From a phage: a DNA stretch of 64,000 nt. Where the stretch lies: the sequence record PZ452610.1, one strand, 5' to 3'. Made by a program: the position numbers and the translations under genes. Position 1 is the stretch's first letter. Each line of letters begins with the position of its first letter. Under the pieces are notes generated by a model, which saw nothing but the letters and a program-made list of their open reading frames with translations, was not told the DNA's origin and ran no database searches. Shown here piece by piece: positions 12,471 through 56,759 of this stretch.

Positions 12471-12668
12471 ATGTTTAAACTTCCATCGTTAATCAACGCT
12501 ATTAAAGGCAATAAAAAGAAAACTGCTATCGCTGCAATAGTTGTAGGTGGCATTATTTCATGGAACTTCGGGATTGCACCATTGTTAGTTGCCCATGGTA
12601 TTATAGTTCCTTCTGTTCCATTGGATACTGTAGTTGATTTGGCCTTTGCTATTATAGGGCTTGTTTAA
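12471..12668 (+). CDS. Small hydrophobic protein, 65 aa; only plus-strand gene candidate
   Basis: ATG preceded by strong SD AAGGAG at 5-nt spacing; predicted TM segment; stop overlaps the stop of convergent gene 61. Confidence 0.45.
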   Translation: MFKLPSLINAIKGNKKKTAIAAIVVGGIISWNFGIAPLLVAHGIIVPSVPLDTVVDLAFAIIGLV

Positions 12669-13687
12669 ATCTTCGAATAACGAGATAATCTCATTTTAGC
12701 ATGCAACCCACTTGAAATATTCTGTTTCATATATTCTAAAATTTCTTGTGGTGTTGCATTTTCTTTCATTACCATATCATTCACATCCTTTGATCTCCAT
12801 GGAGCTCGATCCCAGAACATGACACGTTCGCCTGCATCAACTAATCGCTTCATGCGAGCTATAGTATCTGGATGCCTAGGTTCATTATCCATTACCCATA
12901 CCCGACGTTCTTTAAATGGTACCACATCTAAATCTATTGAGCCGCCTGTAATAGCGATTGCATTGGGTATGAATAAACTATCAATAGGGCCTTCCATTAC
13001 CCAGACGTCTCCTTCCTTAACACGTTCAACACCATAAATTTTTGTTGCAGACTCAAACGCTTTAATAGTGATATATTTCTGAGGAGCATCTTTGCGAAGT
13101 GCACGTCCTTGAAATGACTCAGCCTTCCCGTCTTTATTAAAAATAGGAATCACTAAACGTGGTTCGGGAATCTCTTTCTTATACGTACCAGGTTGAATCT
13201 TGTTGACCAATTTAGGCCATTCTAATGTGAACCATAATCTGTTCCACGATTCTTTAGGAATACACCGAGACTTAACATATTTCACAATAGGATGCTCTTC
13301 AGGCAGCTTGTCCAGACGAGAACAAGACGGCAAAGAATTTATAGTCTTTTTCTCCGGTTCTGGTTTATGTTCAGGAACCTTTTCAATCTTTGGTTCCATT
13401 CTAGCTTTTTCTTTACGAACTTCCATTAGATATTCGCGATAAAGCTCTTCATCATACTCTTTTAAGTATCCAGAAATTGTATTGTGGTATTGACAGTTAT
13501 AGCAATGCACATTACCTGGAGTACCACCGTAATACCATCCGCGAGCTTTCATTGCATCTGTCTGGGAGTCGCCACAAACTGGACAACGAAACGTTAATTT
13601 AAATGTGCTTGAATTATTGATTTGTCTAAAACGAGGGAGGTGAGAAAACGCACGATAAGCAAATTCATTATCTATCCATTCAGCCAT
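12665..13687 (-). CDS. 61: DNA primase gp61
   Basis: 340 aa; N-terminal zinc ribbon (CPVCGDS...CYNCQYH), primase core; SD GGAGAAT before ATG 13687. Confidence 0.95.
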   Translation of the reverse strand: MAEWIDNEFAYRAFSHLPRFRQINNSSTFKLTFRCPVCGDSQTDAMKARGWYYGGTPGNVHCYNCQYHNTISGYLKEYDEELYREYLMEVRKEKARMEPKIEKVPEHKPEPEKKTINSLPSCSRLDKLPEEHPIVKYVKSRCIPKESWNRLWFTLEWPKLVNKIQPGTYKKEIPEPRLVIPIFNKDGKAESFQGRALRKDAPQKYITIKAFESATKIYGVERVKEGDVWVMEGPIDSLFIPNAIAITGGSIDLDVVPFKERRVWVMDNEPRHPDTIARMKRLVDAGERVMFWDRAPWRSKDVNDMVMKENATPQEILEYMKQNISSGLHAKMRLSRYSKI

Positions 13688-13726: not shown

Positions 13727-14221
13727 TCACAACTTATTAATATTTACTTTAATTCGCTTTCTTTTCTTGGAAGGAATTTGTTCTGGACCTTTATTTACGA
13801 CTGCACCTGTAGTTGTTCCTGATGCAATAGCTTGAGGGCTGCCACCTGAATCACCAGCCACCATATCCTCAAATAAAGGGAGTTCTTTAAATATTTCTTT
13901 CTGTTGTTCTTCTGTAATGTTATAGCGGGATGCTACGGCACTCCAGGCAGACATCATTGAGGCCATTCCATTAAGACCTGGAACAGTGCTCATCATTCGC
14001 TTCATTGAACGAACTGAAGCATGAAAAGGTGTATAAGCCGCTTTCTCTTCAGGAGTGGAAGGACGTTTAAGAACACTTCCACGTTCATCGATGATTTTGG
14101 CTTCGTATGCTTTCCATTCGGTAAAAGGTTTTTGCATTAGTCGAATAAACTTATATGCATAAACAGAATCTATTGCAGTGTTAATAATACCCATAGGTAC
14201 CTCCTGAGTATATTTAATCAA
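13727..14221 (-). CDS. Hypothetical protein, 164 aa (61.1 position)
   Basis: ORF; basic C-terminal tail KKRKRIKVNINKL. Confidence 0.5.
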   Translation of the reverse strand: MIKYTQEVPMGIINTAIDSVYAYKFIRLMQKPFTEWKAYEAKIIDERGSVLKRPSTPEEKAAYTPFHASVRSMKRMMSTVPGLNGMASMMSAWSAVASRYNITEEQQKEIFKELPLFEDMVAGDSGGSPQAIASGTTTGAVVNKGPEQIPSKKRKRIKVNINKL

Positions 14222-14411
14222 TTACAAAGATTGCTTTGTCACCATTTATATCTGTGACTTCATATGTAGTGCCTTCATACTGTGGAATATTCCAAATTAC
14301 ACCGTCATTAGCTTTTACGCTAATATGGCATTGGTGTTTTGAAACAACTTCATAATCTTCAAAACTTGTAAAAACACTAATTTTAGAACCAGTGCAAATT
14401 GCAGTAGTCAT
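14214..14411 (-). CDS. Hypothetical protein, 65 aa
   Basis: ORF in operon context. Confidence 0.4.
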   Translation of the reverse strand: MTTAICTGSKISVFTSFEDYEVVSKHQCHISVKANDGVIWNIPQYEGTTYEVTDINGDKAIFVID

Positions 14412-14412
14412 T

Positions 14413-15072
14413 TTAACCTCGATTCATAAATGCATTAAATATTTGGTCATCAACAGAAATTTCTAATTCGACTTCAATTGCTTCGGCCTTTTCTTCAGGT
14501 GGTAATTCGTATCCACACACTACAATTTTTTCATCGATATCAAAATATACAGAAGCAATACGATTAATGTTATTTTCAGTTAAGTCCAAATCAACATCAA
14601 CATCTTTTTGGCCTACACTTAGAGGATAACTAATACGGGTTATTTTATTATCTTTAACAAAGAGTCCACCAACATACTCTGTACTACGTTTGAAGTTTAC
14701 ACGTTTCCGAATTGAAAGATATGATACATCTTTACCGTGAGCTCGGCTCATAGGACATAATGAATAGCTAGAATAAGAGATGTCAAATCCTACACCTTCA
14801 ATATGAGCCAACGCGTCATGATTAAACCAATTATAATCATATGCCAAATCCATTATATTGTAATATGTGAAAGGCACAGGATTAACATCATATGTTGTAC
14901 CTTTAAAATCTGCCCAGGCAACGATTTCGTTATCTTTAACAATTACAAAAATTACACCAATATGGTATCCTTTATTATTTTCATTCGGCGTTATATTATA
15001 ACATTGTGCATTAGGAAATTTACCATATTTAAATGGTGCGTTTTTGTGCATATAATAAATCATATTATTCAC
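14413..15072 (-). CDS. Hypothetical protein, 219 aa (61.2 position; candidate AdfA-like anti-DarT factor by synteny only)
   Basis: Position between 61 and sp as for T4 61.2; no motif recognised. Confidence 0.5.
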   Translation of the reverse strand: MNNMIYYMHKNAPFKYGKFPNAQCYNITPNENNKGYHIGVIFVIVKDNEIVAWADFKGTTYDVNPVPFTYYNIMDLAYDYNWFNHDALAHIEGVGFDISYSSYSLCPMSRAHGKDVSYLSIRKRVNFKRSTEYVGGLFVKDNKITRISYPLSVGQKDVDVDLDLTENNINRIASVYFDIDEKIVVCGYELPPEEKAEAIEVELEISVDDQIFNAFMNRG

Positions 15073-15358
15073 CTGTGATTTCGGTTACGATATCTTTGTT
15101 ATCGAAATTAGGGTCACAATACAAAACATAGTTGTACTGCATGATACCGCCAGACTTAAGTTGTTCAACAACTTTATTAACCATATTAGGACGGTCTCGT
15201 TTAGTGATGTTCATGATATCAGAGAAGATTTGTTGTTCAACATCTTCTTGATTTGCAGTCATTGACCACTCACAGAGGTCTTTATCATAACCTGCCGTAA
15301 CTGGAGCCGGTGCACATGATACTGCAAGTAAGATTGCTGCCAATGATAACTTTTTCAT
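15065..15358 (-). CDS. sp: Spackle-like periplasmic protein
   Basis: 97 aa with N-terminal signal peptide MKKLSLAAILLAVSCAPAP; length and position match T4 sp (61.3). Confidence 0.55.
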   Translation of the reverse strand: MKKLSLAAILLAVSCAPAPVTAGYDKDLCEWSMTANQEDVEQQIFSDIMNITKRDRPNMVNKVVEQLKSGGIMQYNYVLYCDPNFDNKDIVTEITGE

Positions 15359-15387: not shown

Positions 15388-15417
15388 ACTATACTATAGT
15401 CCATCTATAATGTAAAC
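15388..15417 (-). promoter_or_regulatory. Early promoter (GTTTAC - 18 nt - TATAGT)
   Basis: Minus strand GTTTACATTATAGATGGACTATAGTATAGT then SD AAGGAG. Confidence 0.45.
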
Positions 15418-15421
15418 AAGT

Positions 15422-15670
15422 TTATTCTTTTTCGCGAATAATAATTACTTGTTGAGGCTGCTGAGCCGATTTCTTTTCGGCAACGATAGACCAAATTAAA
15501 GTTCCAATCCAACCAATCATCGTCCAGTTAAAGAGTAAAGATACAAAGAAGATTGCTGTTGTGCTTTTTGTGCCACGAATAAGTGCGATTACCCAAGGCA
15601 ACATGTAAATGATGATTGAACCAATACCTGCGATTAAAACTGCTACTGAACTAGCTACGAATAATTCCAT
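15422..15670 (-). CDS. Imm_superinfect-family small membrane protein (superinfection immunity-like)
   Basis: 82 aa, two TM segments; motif AIFFVSLLFNWTMIGWIGTLIW resembles the GWxGIGWI signature of the superinfection-immunity family. Confidence 0.55.
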   Translation of the reverse strand: MELFVASSVAVLIAGIGSIIIYMLPWVIALIRGTKSTTAIFFVSLLFNWTMIGWIGTLIWSIVAEKKSAQQPQQVIIIREKE

Positions 15671-15697
15671 GTTAATTTCCTCTTGATTTGTTATGTT

Positions 15698-15727
15698 TAT
15701 AATATCTTGTTTTAACTTTGGCGTAAA
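15698..15727 (-). promoter_or_regulatory. Early promoter (GTTTAC - 18 nt - TATTAT)
   Basis: Minus strand GTTTACGCCAAAGTTAAAACAAGATATTAT. Confidence 0.5.
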
Positions 15728-15731
15728 CCAA

Positions 15732-16100
15732 TTAATTAAATTTGTTTAAACGTTCAATACACTGGACGTAGTTATTCGCGATTTGTTTCTGGGTAGGCTC
15801 TTTACCAGTTGTTTCAACATAACGAATGAATGCGATTTCAGTAGCCTGTAGACAATGTTCTTTAACGCGTTGTTCTTTTGACAATGCTACAGTATCAGAG
15901 TCACGATAACGTTGAGCATGGGCATCAGCTTGAATCATTCGATTACCTACAGTAACCGGGTCTTCCACTTCAACTTTAGGTTGGTCGTACTGTTTAACAT
16001 TCGGATTGTAAATCAATTGGCCAACGTTATTAGGGATAAAGCCATGGGCACCACATCCGGTTAATCCAAATACCATTGCTAAAGCGATTAATTTTTTCAT
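15732..16100 (-). CDS. Putative lipoprotein, 122 aa
   Basis: Signal peptide with lipobox LTGC (MKKLIALAMVFGLTGCGA). Confidence 0.55.
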   Translation of the reverse strand: MKKLIALAMVFGLTGCGAHGFIPNNVGQLIYNPNVKQYDQPKVEVEDPVTVGNRMIQADAHAQRYRDSDTVALSKEQRVKEHCLQATEIAFIRYVETTGKEPTQKQIANNYVQCIERLNKFN

Positions 16101-16128
16101 TTCAATTTCCTCTGTAGTTGATAGAAAG

Positions 16129-16158
16129 ATAGTAACACAGTATGTGGGGCTTGTAAAC
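16129..16158 (-). promoter_or_regulatory. Early promoter (GTTTAC - 18 nt - TACTAT)
   Basis: Minus strand GTTTACAAGCCCCACATACTGTGTTACTAT. Confidence 0.45.
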
Positions 16159-16171
16159 AGTTATTTTAAAA

Positions 16172-16381
16172 TTATCGAAAATCTGCTTCGAAAACTTTCT
16201 CGTCATTAACAAATGCTTTAACTAATGCTTTGTTCACTTCAGCAAGTTGTACCGTAACCCACTCGATTTCTTCGCGATCACCTGATAACATGATATCTTT
16301 AGTGAACATCTCACCGCTTTTAAACCAACCGATAAAAGTAACTTTAGTTAATTTGCTCATATTTCCTCGCAAAATGCCCAT
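16172..16381 (-). CDS. Hypothetical protein, 69 aa
   Basis: ORF; likely true start at internal Met MSKLTKV. Confidence 0.4.
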   Translation of the reverse strand: MGILRGNMSKLTKVTFIGWFKSGEMFTKDIMLSGDREEIEWVTVQLAEVNKALVKAFVNDEKVFEADFR

Positions 16382-16674
16382 TCAGCGTGATAAACTGTAG
16401 CGCCTTTAGTATCATTCATTTGAACTACATCTACCGGAGAAATTACTCGATAGAGACGTGGTTCACCTCCATAAGAGCGTGCTGCTCGTCCTGCATAAAT
16501 CTTTGCTAAACCGATATCTTCAGTAAAGAATACACGATCCAAGTTTTTCTTACGTCCAGTTTCAGACAGAACTCCTGTTTCTTCAGGAGGACAAAGCATG
16601 TTTTCGATGTTAGCTGAACTACTTGAACCGTGATAAAAAATCTTAAATTCTGCTTTACAATCAATGGTTTTCAT
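16357..16674 (-). CDS. Hypothetical protein, 105 aa, with H-G-S ... IYAG motif (possible minimal ART-like fold)
   Basis: ATG 16674 with SD GGAG; FYHGSSS followed about 40 aa later by GLAKIYAGRAA. Confidence 0.5.
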   Translation of the reverse strand: MKTIDCKAEFKIFYHGSSSSANIENMLCPPEETGVLSETGRKKNLDRVFFTEDIGLAKIYAGRAARSYGGEPRLYRVISPVDVVQMNDTKGATVYHAEWAFCEEI

Positions 16675-20799: not shown

Positions 20800-21699
20800 T
20801 TATTCCTCGATTACGACATCTTCATATTTAGGTATATTATACGGTGAAGAAATTAAAGCATTAAAGTAGATGAACTCACCAAGACCTGGATGAAATACTT
20901 CTTCAGGATTTTCGAAATATTGAATCTTCGGACGTCCTTTAAGAATTTGATAGTACTCAGTTTTAGTTGGTTTAAAAATTCGAATCAACGCTTCTTCAGG
21001 ATACTTATTTCTGTCGAAGCTATTATTTGGATCGGTTATATAAAGCGGTTGACCTAATTGAATTGCGCATTCAACAACTTGTTCAAAACGATAGCATGGG
21101 TCACTAATTCGAAATGGATGAAAAATACCATCTAGATGAATAGGAGCCAAATCACCTACAAGACGCTGCATGATGGAAGGACGTATAACTTTCTGCGTTA
21201 CGATAATCTTATTACCATCTGCACCTGCGTTAACCAGCACTTCTTTTTGACGTTCATTCAACACAGTAGTTTGAAGTGAACGATTAACCGACAACATATC
21301 AGTTTTTAAGAATTCGTCAATATAAAAACGTGGTTTATTAGGGTCTGCAGTGATATTGAAATTGAATTCCACATCAAAAGCGCCGTCATATCCAGTGATA
21401 TCTGTGATTAAAAAATCACAATCATAATAAGCAATTAATGAATCAACAACAAATTCATTTTCAGACCAGAAATATTTACGAGTGTTATACGCGTTATCTT
21501 TATACCATAATGGAACAAACTTAAATTCTGGAAAAAGACGTTCGCATTCTTTAATATCAGATGCATTACGTGGATATGTAATCACATCACCCGGATTAGC
21601 ACGGTGCAAATGAAGTTGGAAGTTGCCATCCTTAAGGATAGCATACTGTCCAGTTTCATAAGACCGCATACTCAAGATTGGTACGCGGAAAATAGCCAT
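20800..21699 (-). CDS. Hypothetical protein, 299 aa, at the T4 beta-gt position
   Basis: ORF between uvsX and 42 where T4 encodes beta-glucosyltransferase; no similarity to beta-gt recognised. Confidence 0.55.
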   Translation of the reverse strand: MAIFRVPILSMRSYETGQYAILKDGNFQLHLHRANPGDVITYPRNASDIKECERLFPEFKFVPLWYKDNAYNTRKYFWSENEFVVDSLIAYYDCDFLITDITGYDGAFDVEFNFNITADPNKPRFYIDEFLKTDMLSVNRSLQTTVLNERQKEVLVNAGADGNKIIVTQKVIRPSIMQRLVGDLAPIHLDGIFHPFRISDPCYRFEQVVECAIQLGQPLYITDPNNSFDRNKYPEEALIRIFKPTKTEYYQILKGRPKIQYFENPEEVFHPGLGEFIYFNALISSPYNIPKYEDVVIEE

Positions 21700-22415
21700 T
21701 AGTCAAGGAATCCTTTAACATAATCAAAATCACGTTCAAACACATGGGCACTTACCATGGTATGAGTATAATCACCAACTTCTACCCCACATTCGTTAGC
21801 GATATAATGAAGTAATTTTCCTTGGAGATAAAAATCCAACTGCATAACAACAGCACAGTTCTGAGAACGCATATGACAGTGGGTATAAAGCTTACCATCA
21901 CGAATATAATAAGTCACTGAGTCAGTACATGGATATTCAAGCGTTTCGTCCGAATCAAGCAAAGCCTGATCAGAACTTTCTAGAATTTGGAACACAACTC
22001 TTCGAGAGTTAGGCTTCTCTTTAAGTTCTTTTAGAAGAGCTGGTAATTGGGCCGCAATGCGAGGACCATAGAAAGTGTTGAAGTTCGCCGGCAAAACATC
22101 TGATTTTGGTTTAGAAATAAATTTAGCGACATTAGGATATGCCTTAAACGCTTCTTCTGCGTTGGTACCACCAGAAATCATAAACTTCCAGAAGTCTTCG
22201 GCATATTCATAAGAGATGCGGTTAATACGTGGGTCGGTCATTTTGAATGATGATGGAGTGTCAACAACTACTGTCATAGACCCAATTTCATTACAACGTC
22301 CAATACGAGAATCAGTTACGAATTCCGGGTTTTCTAAAATTTCACGATTGACTGCTTTAAATGCGGTTTGAAAATCTGCGGCTTTGATATATTTCATTGT
22401 GTTATGTTTTCCCAT
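21699..22415 (-). CDS. 42: dCMP hydroxymethylase gp42 (thymidylate synthase family)
   Basis: 238 aa; TS-family motifs SRRVVF, active-site PC (EYPCTDS), MRSQN; T4 position. Confidence 0.8.
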   Translation of the reverse strand: MGKHNTMKYIKAADFQTAFKAVNREILENPEFVTDSRIGRCNEIGSMTVVVDTPSSFKMTDPRINRISYEYAEDFWKFMISGGTNAEEAFKAYPNVAKFISKPKSDVLPANFNTFYGPRIAAQLPALLKELKEKPNSRRVVFQILESSDQALLDSDETLEYPCTDSVTYYIRDGKLYTHCHMRSQNCAVVMQLDFYLQGKLLHYIANECGVEVGDYTHTMVSAHVFERDFDYVKGFLD

Positions 22416-43964: not shown

Positions 43965-44154
43965 ATTTAGTAAACGTTATAAAAGTCTCGATGGAAACGC
44001 TTATACTGACGAATCATTCTTTTAGTAGGACGAGTTTCTGAAATAATTGAAGTCCTCATATTTGGATTGTTTGGGGCCCAATCATAATAAATTTCCAGGA
44101 TTTTTGCCCATTTTTTCTTTCGCCATAAAATAGTTCAGTTTTCATAATAAGCCC

Positions 44155-56056: not shown

Positions 56057-56265
56057 AACCATGTCACCTTTAAGCAATATTCTTCTACATGTTGTTTACG
56101 GCCTTTCTTATCAATAAAGGTATATTCAACGAATGTTCCGATGTAGTCTTTATCTACATCATGTGGACTATTAATTGGACATTTGGTACGACAAATGCGT
56201 TCCCATTGACGAATAATTACTGCCTTATTCTTTGGGTCATATGGATGTGGATAATGTATATTCAT
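56053..56265 (-). CDS. Hypothetical protein, about 70 aa (tk.3 position)
   Basis: ATG 56265 overlaps stop of the macro-domain gene. Confidence 0.45.
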   Translation of the reverse strand: MNIHYPHPYDPKNKAVIIRQWERICRTKCPINSPHDVDKDYIGTFVEYTFIDKKGRKQHVEEYCLKVTWL

Positions 56266-56759
56266 AATAACGGTTCCCAATCAACAATCACAATTTCTAG
56301 TTTAGTGGAATACGTATCTAAAATCTCTTCGATGACATCCCAGTTTCCGCCACCGATACCTGCACCAATTCTTGGCATATAAATTACAGGCTTTGTTATC
56401 TTATTCTTTCCGAATTCATTTAATTCTATTATACAATTCATTAAAGCAGAGTACTCAAAATTAGGTCCCGGCTCAAACTGCGTATAAAGATTAAAGCAAT
56501 AAGCTTTATGGGTCTTAAAATATTTTTCATAAACCGAATAAGTCCCGAGTTTAGACTCGTCTCCGAATTCGGTTTGAAGTTTATCGGCTTCCAGAATTTT
56601 TGGATAAGCCTTTGCTAATTGTCCTGCCACACCGGCGCCCATTGTATGAAAACAATTACACCCATGAGCAATATTATTACCTTTAGAAAACAGGGCGACA
56701 ATATCGCCCTTGATATAGTTTTTAATCACTTGCTGCAAGTCCTCTAGTATAAGAGTCAA
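56262..56759 (-). CDS. Macro-domain protein, putative ADP-ribose binding/hydrolase (tk.4 position); non-ATG start
   Basis: 165 aa; Gly-rich motifs NIAHGCNCFHTMGAGVAGQL and PRIGAGIGGGNW typical of macro domains. Confidence 0.65.
   Translation of the reverse strand: MTLILEDLQQVIKNYIKGDIVALFSKGNNIAHGCNCFHTMGAGVAGQLAKAYPKILEADKLQTEFGDESKLGTYSVYEKYFKTHKAYCFNLYTQFEPGPNFEYSALMNCIIELNEFGKNKITKPVIYMPRIGAGIGGGNWDVIEEILDTYSTKLEIVIVDWEPLL

Follow-up and report, generated by a model that had tools for sequence, protein, structure and literature searches.

The closest described relatives of the gene considered here are the anti-DarT factors of T4-like phages. AdfA (gp61.2) was discovered through mutants of phage RB69 that escape the defence system DarTG1, in which the substitution R164H alone enables neutralisation of the toxin DarT1 (PMC11257639/PMC11825919). 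DarTG1 blocks RB69, R164H appears rapidly under DarTG1 selection, and T4 AdfA, which has His164, restores RB69 growth on DarTG1 when supplied in trans (PMC11257639/PMC11825919). In bacterial two-hybrid assays of the RB69 alleles, which make up the literature binding data for AdfA, RB69 AdfA(R164H) associates strongly with the catalytically dead DarT1(E152A) and the wild-type Arg164 protein does not (PMC11257639/PMC11825919). AdfA has been termed a direct DarT inhibitor (PMC13309987; PMC11481870), and its inactive variants have been suggested by the authors to target other DarT homologues (PMC11257639/PMC11825919; PMC11481870). The allele phenotypes cited here come from follow-up papers by the group of LeRoux 2022 (Nat Microbiol).

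Like AdfA, the enzymes AdfN and AdfM counter DarTG in the same phage genomes, but they strip ADP-ribose off DNA rather than bind the toxin, as AdfA does according to the literature. AdfN is gp30.3, an ADP-ribosylglycohydrolase of the NADAR type that is frameshifted only in RB69 (PMC11257639/PMC11825919); AdfM, a macrodomain protein, is the name given in a 2025 preprint to T4 Tk.4, an anti-DarTG2 factor. A T4 transposon screen recovered adfN alone on DarTG1 and tk.4 alone on DarTG2. [quoted passage not shown] A further comparison is AdfB of the Vibrio phage ICP1 (gp145, 77 aa), which resembles AdfA in being a small presumed DarT binder whose natural alleles include active and inactive forms one residue apart, but is unrelated in sequence (<15%), belongs to another family, acts on a different DarT and is reported to mimic the C-terminal domain of DarG (PMC11481870).

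Identity and setting of the gene at the 61.2 locus

The window analysed here is a stretch of phage DNA of 64,000 nucleotides (sequence record PZ452610.1), 4.6 kb of which matched Escherichia coli O157 typing phages 3, 6 and 13 at 100% identity. These phages are classified in Mosigvirus, the RB69-like genus of the Tevenvirinae. The open reading frame listing gave a GTG-initiated ORF of 219 aa on the minus strand (14413..15072), in a gene order that reads on that strand uvsX, 40, 41, two small ORFs, dmd, imm.1, imm, sp, adfA, a 65-aa ORF, 61.1, 61 and 56. It lies directly downstream of sp and upstream of 61.1 and 61, all on one strand, and the same sp - 61.2 - 61.1 - 61 arrangement is found in the T4 and RB69 annotations. 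The ORF occupies the T4 61.2 slot, where the preliminary description had placed it. Features of the locus are collected in Table 1.

Table 1. Features of the adfA locus and a second candidate anti-DarT gene, in window coordinates
Feature	Coordinates	Strand	Basis or remark
Primase gene 61	12665..13687	-	far flank of the adfA ORF
gp61.1	13727..14221	-	between adfA and gene 61
65-aa ORF	14214..14411	-	between adfA and gene 61
adfA (gene 61.2) CDS, ATG start, 216 aa plus stop	14413..15063	-	RefSeq FDG79_gp159; Pfam PF23813; RB69 and T4 identity; dN/dS
C-terminal half, ~residues 98-216, with residue 164 and the acidic tail	14416..14772	-	homologous to stand-alone 118-aa phrog_4122 proteins
Codon 164 (RB69 numbering; residue 168 of the 216-aa protein), CGT = Arg	14560..14562	-	codon location and alignments
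N-terminal half, ~residues 1-97	14773..15063	-	segment identities; missing from the 118-aa short paralogues
sp	15065..15358	-	flanks the adfA ORF
Shine-Dalgarno-like AGGTGA	15069..15074	-	5 nt upstream of the ATG at 15063; read from the sequence
GTG opening the 219-aa ORF, unlikely to be the true start	15070..15072	-	inside the Shine-Dalgarno-like AGGTGA; overlaps the end of sp
Sigma-70-like promoter match, TTTACA-17-TATAGT	15388..15416	-	imm-sp gap; consensus scan, 10/12 matches
Tk.4/AdfM homologue	56265..56729	-	84% identity to T4 Tk.4 over 155 aa; macrodomain match to DarG

A Pfam-A search matched the family PF23813 (AdfA, Anti-DarT factor A) over its full length (E=1.1e-119; 397.8 bits against a curated cutoff of 27 bits), covering profile positions 1-211 of 211 and residues 4-219 of the 219 in the ORF, and phrog_3781 was matched at E=4e-131. 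The protein shares 98% identity over 212 aa with RB69 gp61.2 (4 substitutions) and 68% with T4 gp61.2, and it falls with the Bas46 protein in one 90%-identity cluster. The preliminary description had put the ORF forward as a candidate 61.2/AdfA by synteny alone, proposing an alignment with the published AdfA and T4 61.2 sequences as a check and counting a lack of similarity against the assignment; that alignment gave overwhelming similarity and bears the assignment out. On sequence grounds we consider the family membership certain, the ORF being adfA, an orthologue of RB69 and T4 gene 61.2.

RB69 AdfA (NP_861724), the founding member of PF23813, shares with the window protein Arg164 encoded by CGT, the place downstream of sp and the genus Mosigvirus; the two proteins differ at four places, K vs N at position 27, A vs T at 80, V vs A at 109 and G vs S at 147 (RB69 positions). 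T4 gp61.2 belongs to the same family and locus and has invariant central and C-terminal motifs, such as HIEGVGFDISYS and DDQIFNAFMN, but it carries His164 rather than Arg and lacks the RB69-type G110 and EAIEVE insertions. Full-length homologues were present in 487 phage records, exclusively from phages of Escherichia, Shigella, Yersinia, Citrobacter and Salmonella. A word-indexed search of 5.8 billion proteins returned 16 clusters, all of them PF23813, and a HMMER profile search run exhaustively over 1.84 billion representatives returned the protein's own cluster and 5 fragments, with no distant relatives. Among solved structures a sequence search found no relative, its lone match being dCMP deaminase at the level of noise (E=0.28); a structure is available for DarT1 (8BAQ), but none turned up for AdfA, alone or in complex with DarT1. 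AdfA is an orphan family restricted to Tevenvirinae of enterobacteria, and the Pfam-A search detected neither a macro nor a NADAR domain in it.

The annotations differ in where the protein begins. The RefSeq CDS (216 aa) begins at the ATG at 15063, one base past the sp stop codon, and T4 61.2 is annotated from the equivalent methionine; the RB69 annotation starts 4 codons later (212 aa) and is the source of the "R164" numbering, and the GTG start is used solely in the Bas46 annotation (219 aa). We consider the ATG the likelier start and take the CDS from there. Values of dN/dS were 0.11-0.33 across six homologues and 0.11-0.25 within Mosigvirus, and adfA is under purifying selection. The ORF is not a product of chance, because these ratios accompany the Pfam score and the 487 records with full-length homologues. 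Two plus-strand ORFs that overlap it (14803..15078 and 14867..15001) were treated as spurious antisense frames, since it is the minus-strand frame that has homologues and shows purifying selection. A sigma-70-like sequence in the imm-sp gap could, as a pattern match, tentatively be assigned a role in driving sp-adfA transcription, and a terminator-like site was sought in the interval from sp to gene 61 and not found.

Both GenBank and RefSeq label this ORF "hypothetical protein", and it can now be annotated as adfA together with its allele state. Published accounts already cover the gene, the family, the residue that matters and the occurrence of the Arg allele in RB69-like phages; what is added here is the coexistence of Arg164 and His164 and an independent C-terminal paralogue, both of which are useful for the design of specificity experiments.

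Codon 164 and probable protection from DarTG

Codon 164 in the window is CGT, encoding Arg, so the protein falls outside the His164 class of DarT1-neutralising alleles and within the class of the RB69 wild type, described in the literature as non-neutralising (PMC11257639/PMC11825919). CGT is found at this codon in RB69, the window phage, REP3 and Bas46, and CAT, encoding His, in HX01 and SHSML-52-1, at 96-97% protein identity; the change from CGT to CAT is one G>A transition. Exact allele-specific 31-mer probes applied to the phage collection in RB69-type backgrounds found 59 CGT and 30 CAT records, a count that covers the 89 of ~158 RB69-type records that are identical around the codon. An exact-match survey of IMG/VR gave 1 Arg and 4 His, too few to use. 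Both Arg164 and His164 are appreciably frequent in natural Mosigvirus genomes that are nearly identical to one another.

The genome also encodes other probable means of countering DarT. AdfN is full length (152 aa) in the same phage genome, outside the window, at 21331..21789 of NC_041863.1; it is 97% identical to that of T4 and retains E36 and K43, whereas 30.3 of RB69 is frameshifted (PMC11257639). Within the window a homologue of AdfM/Tk.4 (Table 1) supplies a second putative anti-DarT gene. From the intact AdfN and the presence of the AdfM homologue we infer that the window phage probably resists the reference DarTG1 and DarTG2 by means of these enzymes. Resistance of this O157 typing phage to the reference DarTG1 is accordingly predicted to be independent of AdfA and to depend on AdfN instead, with AdfM serving against DarTG2.

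These observations and the literature on the RB69 protein, which is 98% identical, can be combined in a proposed mechanism. What the gene is, which allele it carries, how it is selected and where it lies in the genome were established here, and DarT1 binding and the allele phenotypes are taken from the literature. The gene encodes a cytoplasmic protein of ~25 kDa without a recognisable enzymatic domain, which would act as a stoichiometric protein inhibitor by binding DarT1, the toxin of the toxin-antitoxin defence DarTG1 and a DNA ADP-ribosyltransferase specific for guanine. Phage DNA would stay unmodified and replicable when DarT1 is bound. Residue 164 would decide binding, His164 proteins binding and neutralising the tested E. 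coli DarT1 and Arg164 proteins failing to do so. Activity of the window AdfA on the reference DarT1 is not expected, because it carries Arg164, and a single G>A transition would be enough to activate it. Protection of the window phage against DarTG1 and DarTG2 would more likely come from removal of ADP-ribose by AdfN and the AdfM/Tk.4 homologue. Purifying selection has kept the Arg164 protein, whose use is presumably against a different DarT1 variant or in another role; extending this to the phage itself, we infer both its behaviour and the target of its Arg allele, which may be another DarT1 variant, unless the gene is held in reserve one mutation from activity. Taken whole, the explanation that this is an orthologue of adfA in a family of DarT1-binding inhibitors, that its Arg164 form is inactive against the reference DarT1 and that AdfN and AdfM protect the phage is, in our judgement, highly probable.

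It had been put forward in the preliminary description, as reported for T4-like phages, that 61.2 counteracts DarTG. The part that concerns inhibition of DarT1 stands, but DarTG2 is not a target of AdfA and deletion of 61.2 from T4 leaves no DarTG phenotype (PMC11257639 / PMC11825919). That T4 result, which holds in the absence of adfN as well, and the recovery of other genes only in the transposon screen are the main reasons to ask whether gp61.2 has a principal role unrelated to DarT, one that the Arg164 protein performs and to which DarT1 binding by His164 is a side activity. A dN/dS below 0.35 whichever allele is carried is consistent with such a role, as is a stand-alone paralogue of the C-terminal domain in the same slot of phages said to lack adfA. 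We nevertheless consider this reading quite unlikely, because rescue of RB69 on DarTG1 by ectopic T4 AdfA and the rapid emergence of R164H establish a direct functional link to DarT1. Decay of the gene, as a relic made redundant by AdfN and drifting towards loss, is hardly credible. The presence of AdfN and an AdfM homologue and the lack of a full-length adfA in some Tevenvirinae, including T2, would suit it, but the ORF is intact, being full length in 487 of the 487 matching records with no frameshifts or premature stops, and synonymous changes exceed non-synonymous ones per site, also within Mosigvirus.

A further reading differs from the preferred one in degree, as a refinement and not a contradiction of it: Arg164 AdfA would be fully functional and tuned to another DarT1 variant or ADP-ribosyltransferase (ART) toxin, with host-driven balancing selection keeping both alleles. 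Their abundance on near-identical Mosigvirus backgrounds, with His in HX01 and SHSML-52-1 and Arg in RB69, Bas46 and the window, agrees with this, as do the purifying selection and the authors' own proposal that inactive variants have other DarT homologues as targets. Against it, the literature reports no DarT variant to which Arg164 AdfA binds, and the polymorphism could be neutral toggling at a single site where AdfN protects, so we regard the idea as possible but doubtful. It can be taken further, to a proposal that seems to us unlikely as it stands, in which Arg164 and His164 would be alternative specificities, both maintained, of a single surface that binds toxins and lies in the acidic C-terminal domain, Arg164 would neutralise another DarT1 clade or a DNA/RNA ADP-ribosyltransferase toxin, and the 118-aa paralogues of T2-like phages would belong to the same modular inhibitor family.

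Two halves of AdfA and its short paralogues

The RB69 and T4 types of the protein diverge most in the first ~55 residues (40% identity), and the family shows mosaicism. In cluster representatives P0002-P0013, identity to the RB69 type is 87-98% in the first 55 columns and identity to the T4 type is 85-98% in the C-terminal half, and many Tequatrovirus proteins are RB69-like in their N-terminal half and T4-like in their C-terminal half. This pattern implies that recombination has probably taken place within adfA near residue ~110.

Residues 126-216 of AdfA match phrog_4122 (E=3e-9), a family of 118-aa proteins that occur in the 61.2 slot of the T2-like phage HY01 (gp032) and in tandem after 61.2 in RB32 (ORF033c). 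These proteins resemble AdfA in their locus, in C-terminal homology and in an identical SIDDQIFNAFMNRG tail, but they lack the N-terminal half and have ~33% identity over the shared part; against the Pfam AdfA profile they align at positions 113-211 with 32-33 bits. The window has no such short 61.2-like gene. Phages reported to "lack adfA" may carry the 118-aa paralogue. Separately, ~200 further phage records have only a match to the SIDDQIFNAFMNRG tail at the 61.2 locus.

An independent C-terminal paralogue suggests that AdfA may be a two-domain protein in which the C-terminal domain is the toxin-binding determinant. The AF2 model of AdfA is weak (pLDDT 64.8) and gives a binding mode no structural support; residue 168, equivalent to 164 in RB69, lies in a helix (163-174) that forms part of the best-predicted region. 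The tail of 67 residues (150-216) is acidic, with a pI of 4.05. The idea that it mimics DNA was set aside as speculation, as nothing besides this acidity supports mimicry.

Neighbouring genes

In this Mosigvirus, imm and imm.1 (DUF5481) are found between sp and dmd (15422..16100, minus strand), whereas the sp-dmd interval of T4 is without imm genes. They extend a local cluster of superinfection-exclusion and anti-defence genes made up of sp, imm, dmd and adfA. In RB69, dmd and imm.1 are separated by gene 61.4, which the window lacks, showing a clean gap of ~206 bp at 16101..16171 with conserved flanks. The T4 gene 61.4 is tifA, the ToxIN inhibitor; elsewhere in the window the sole tblastn match to T4 gp61.4 was a weak one at 43988..44110 (43% over 42 aa, E=8e-4).

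The window gp61.1 is a single ORF of 155/164 aa, and in the RB69 reference the same region is divided by a frame change into two CDS (ORF032c and 61.1), each of which is 100% identical to the window ORF as far as the junction. The split points to a frameshift or a sequencing error in RB69.

An ORF of 105 aa on the minus strand (16357..16674), between gene 41 and dmd, belongs to the RB69ORF040c family (phrog_2110). It had no match in Pfam or NCBIfam, and a literature search for it found no paper. It is predicted to adopt a minimal ART fold and is a candidate minimal ART within the anti-defence cluster. It is highly conserved, proteins with >60% identity to it forming 149 clusters from T4-like phages of Escherichia, Enterobacter, Pantoea, Serratia, Pectobacterium, Proteus, Erwinia, Acinetobacter and Vibrio.
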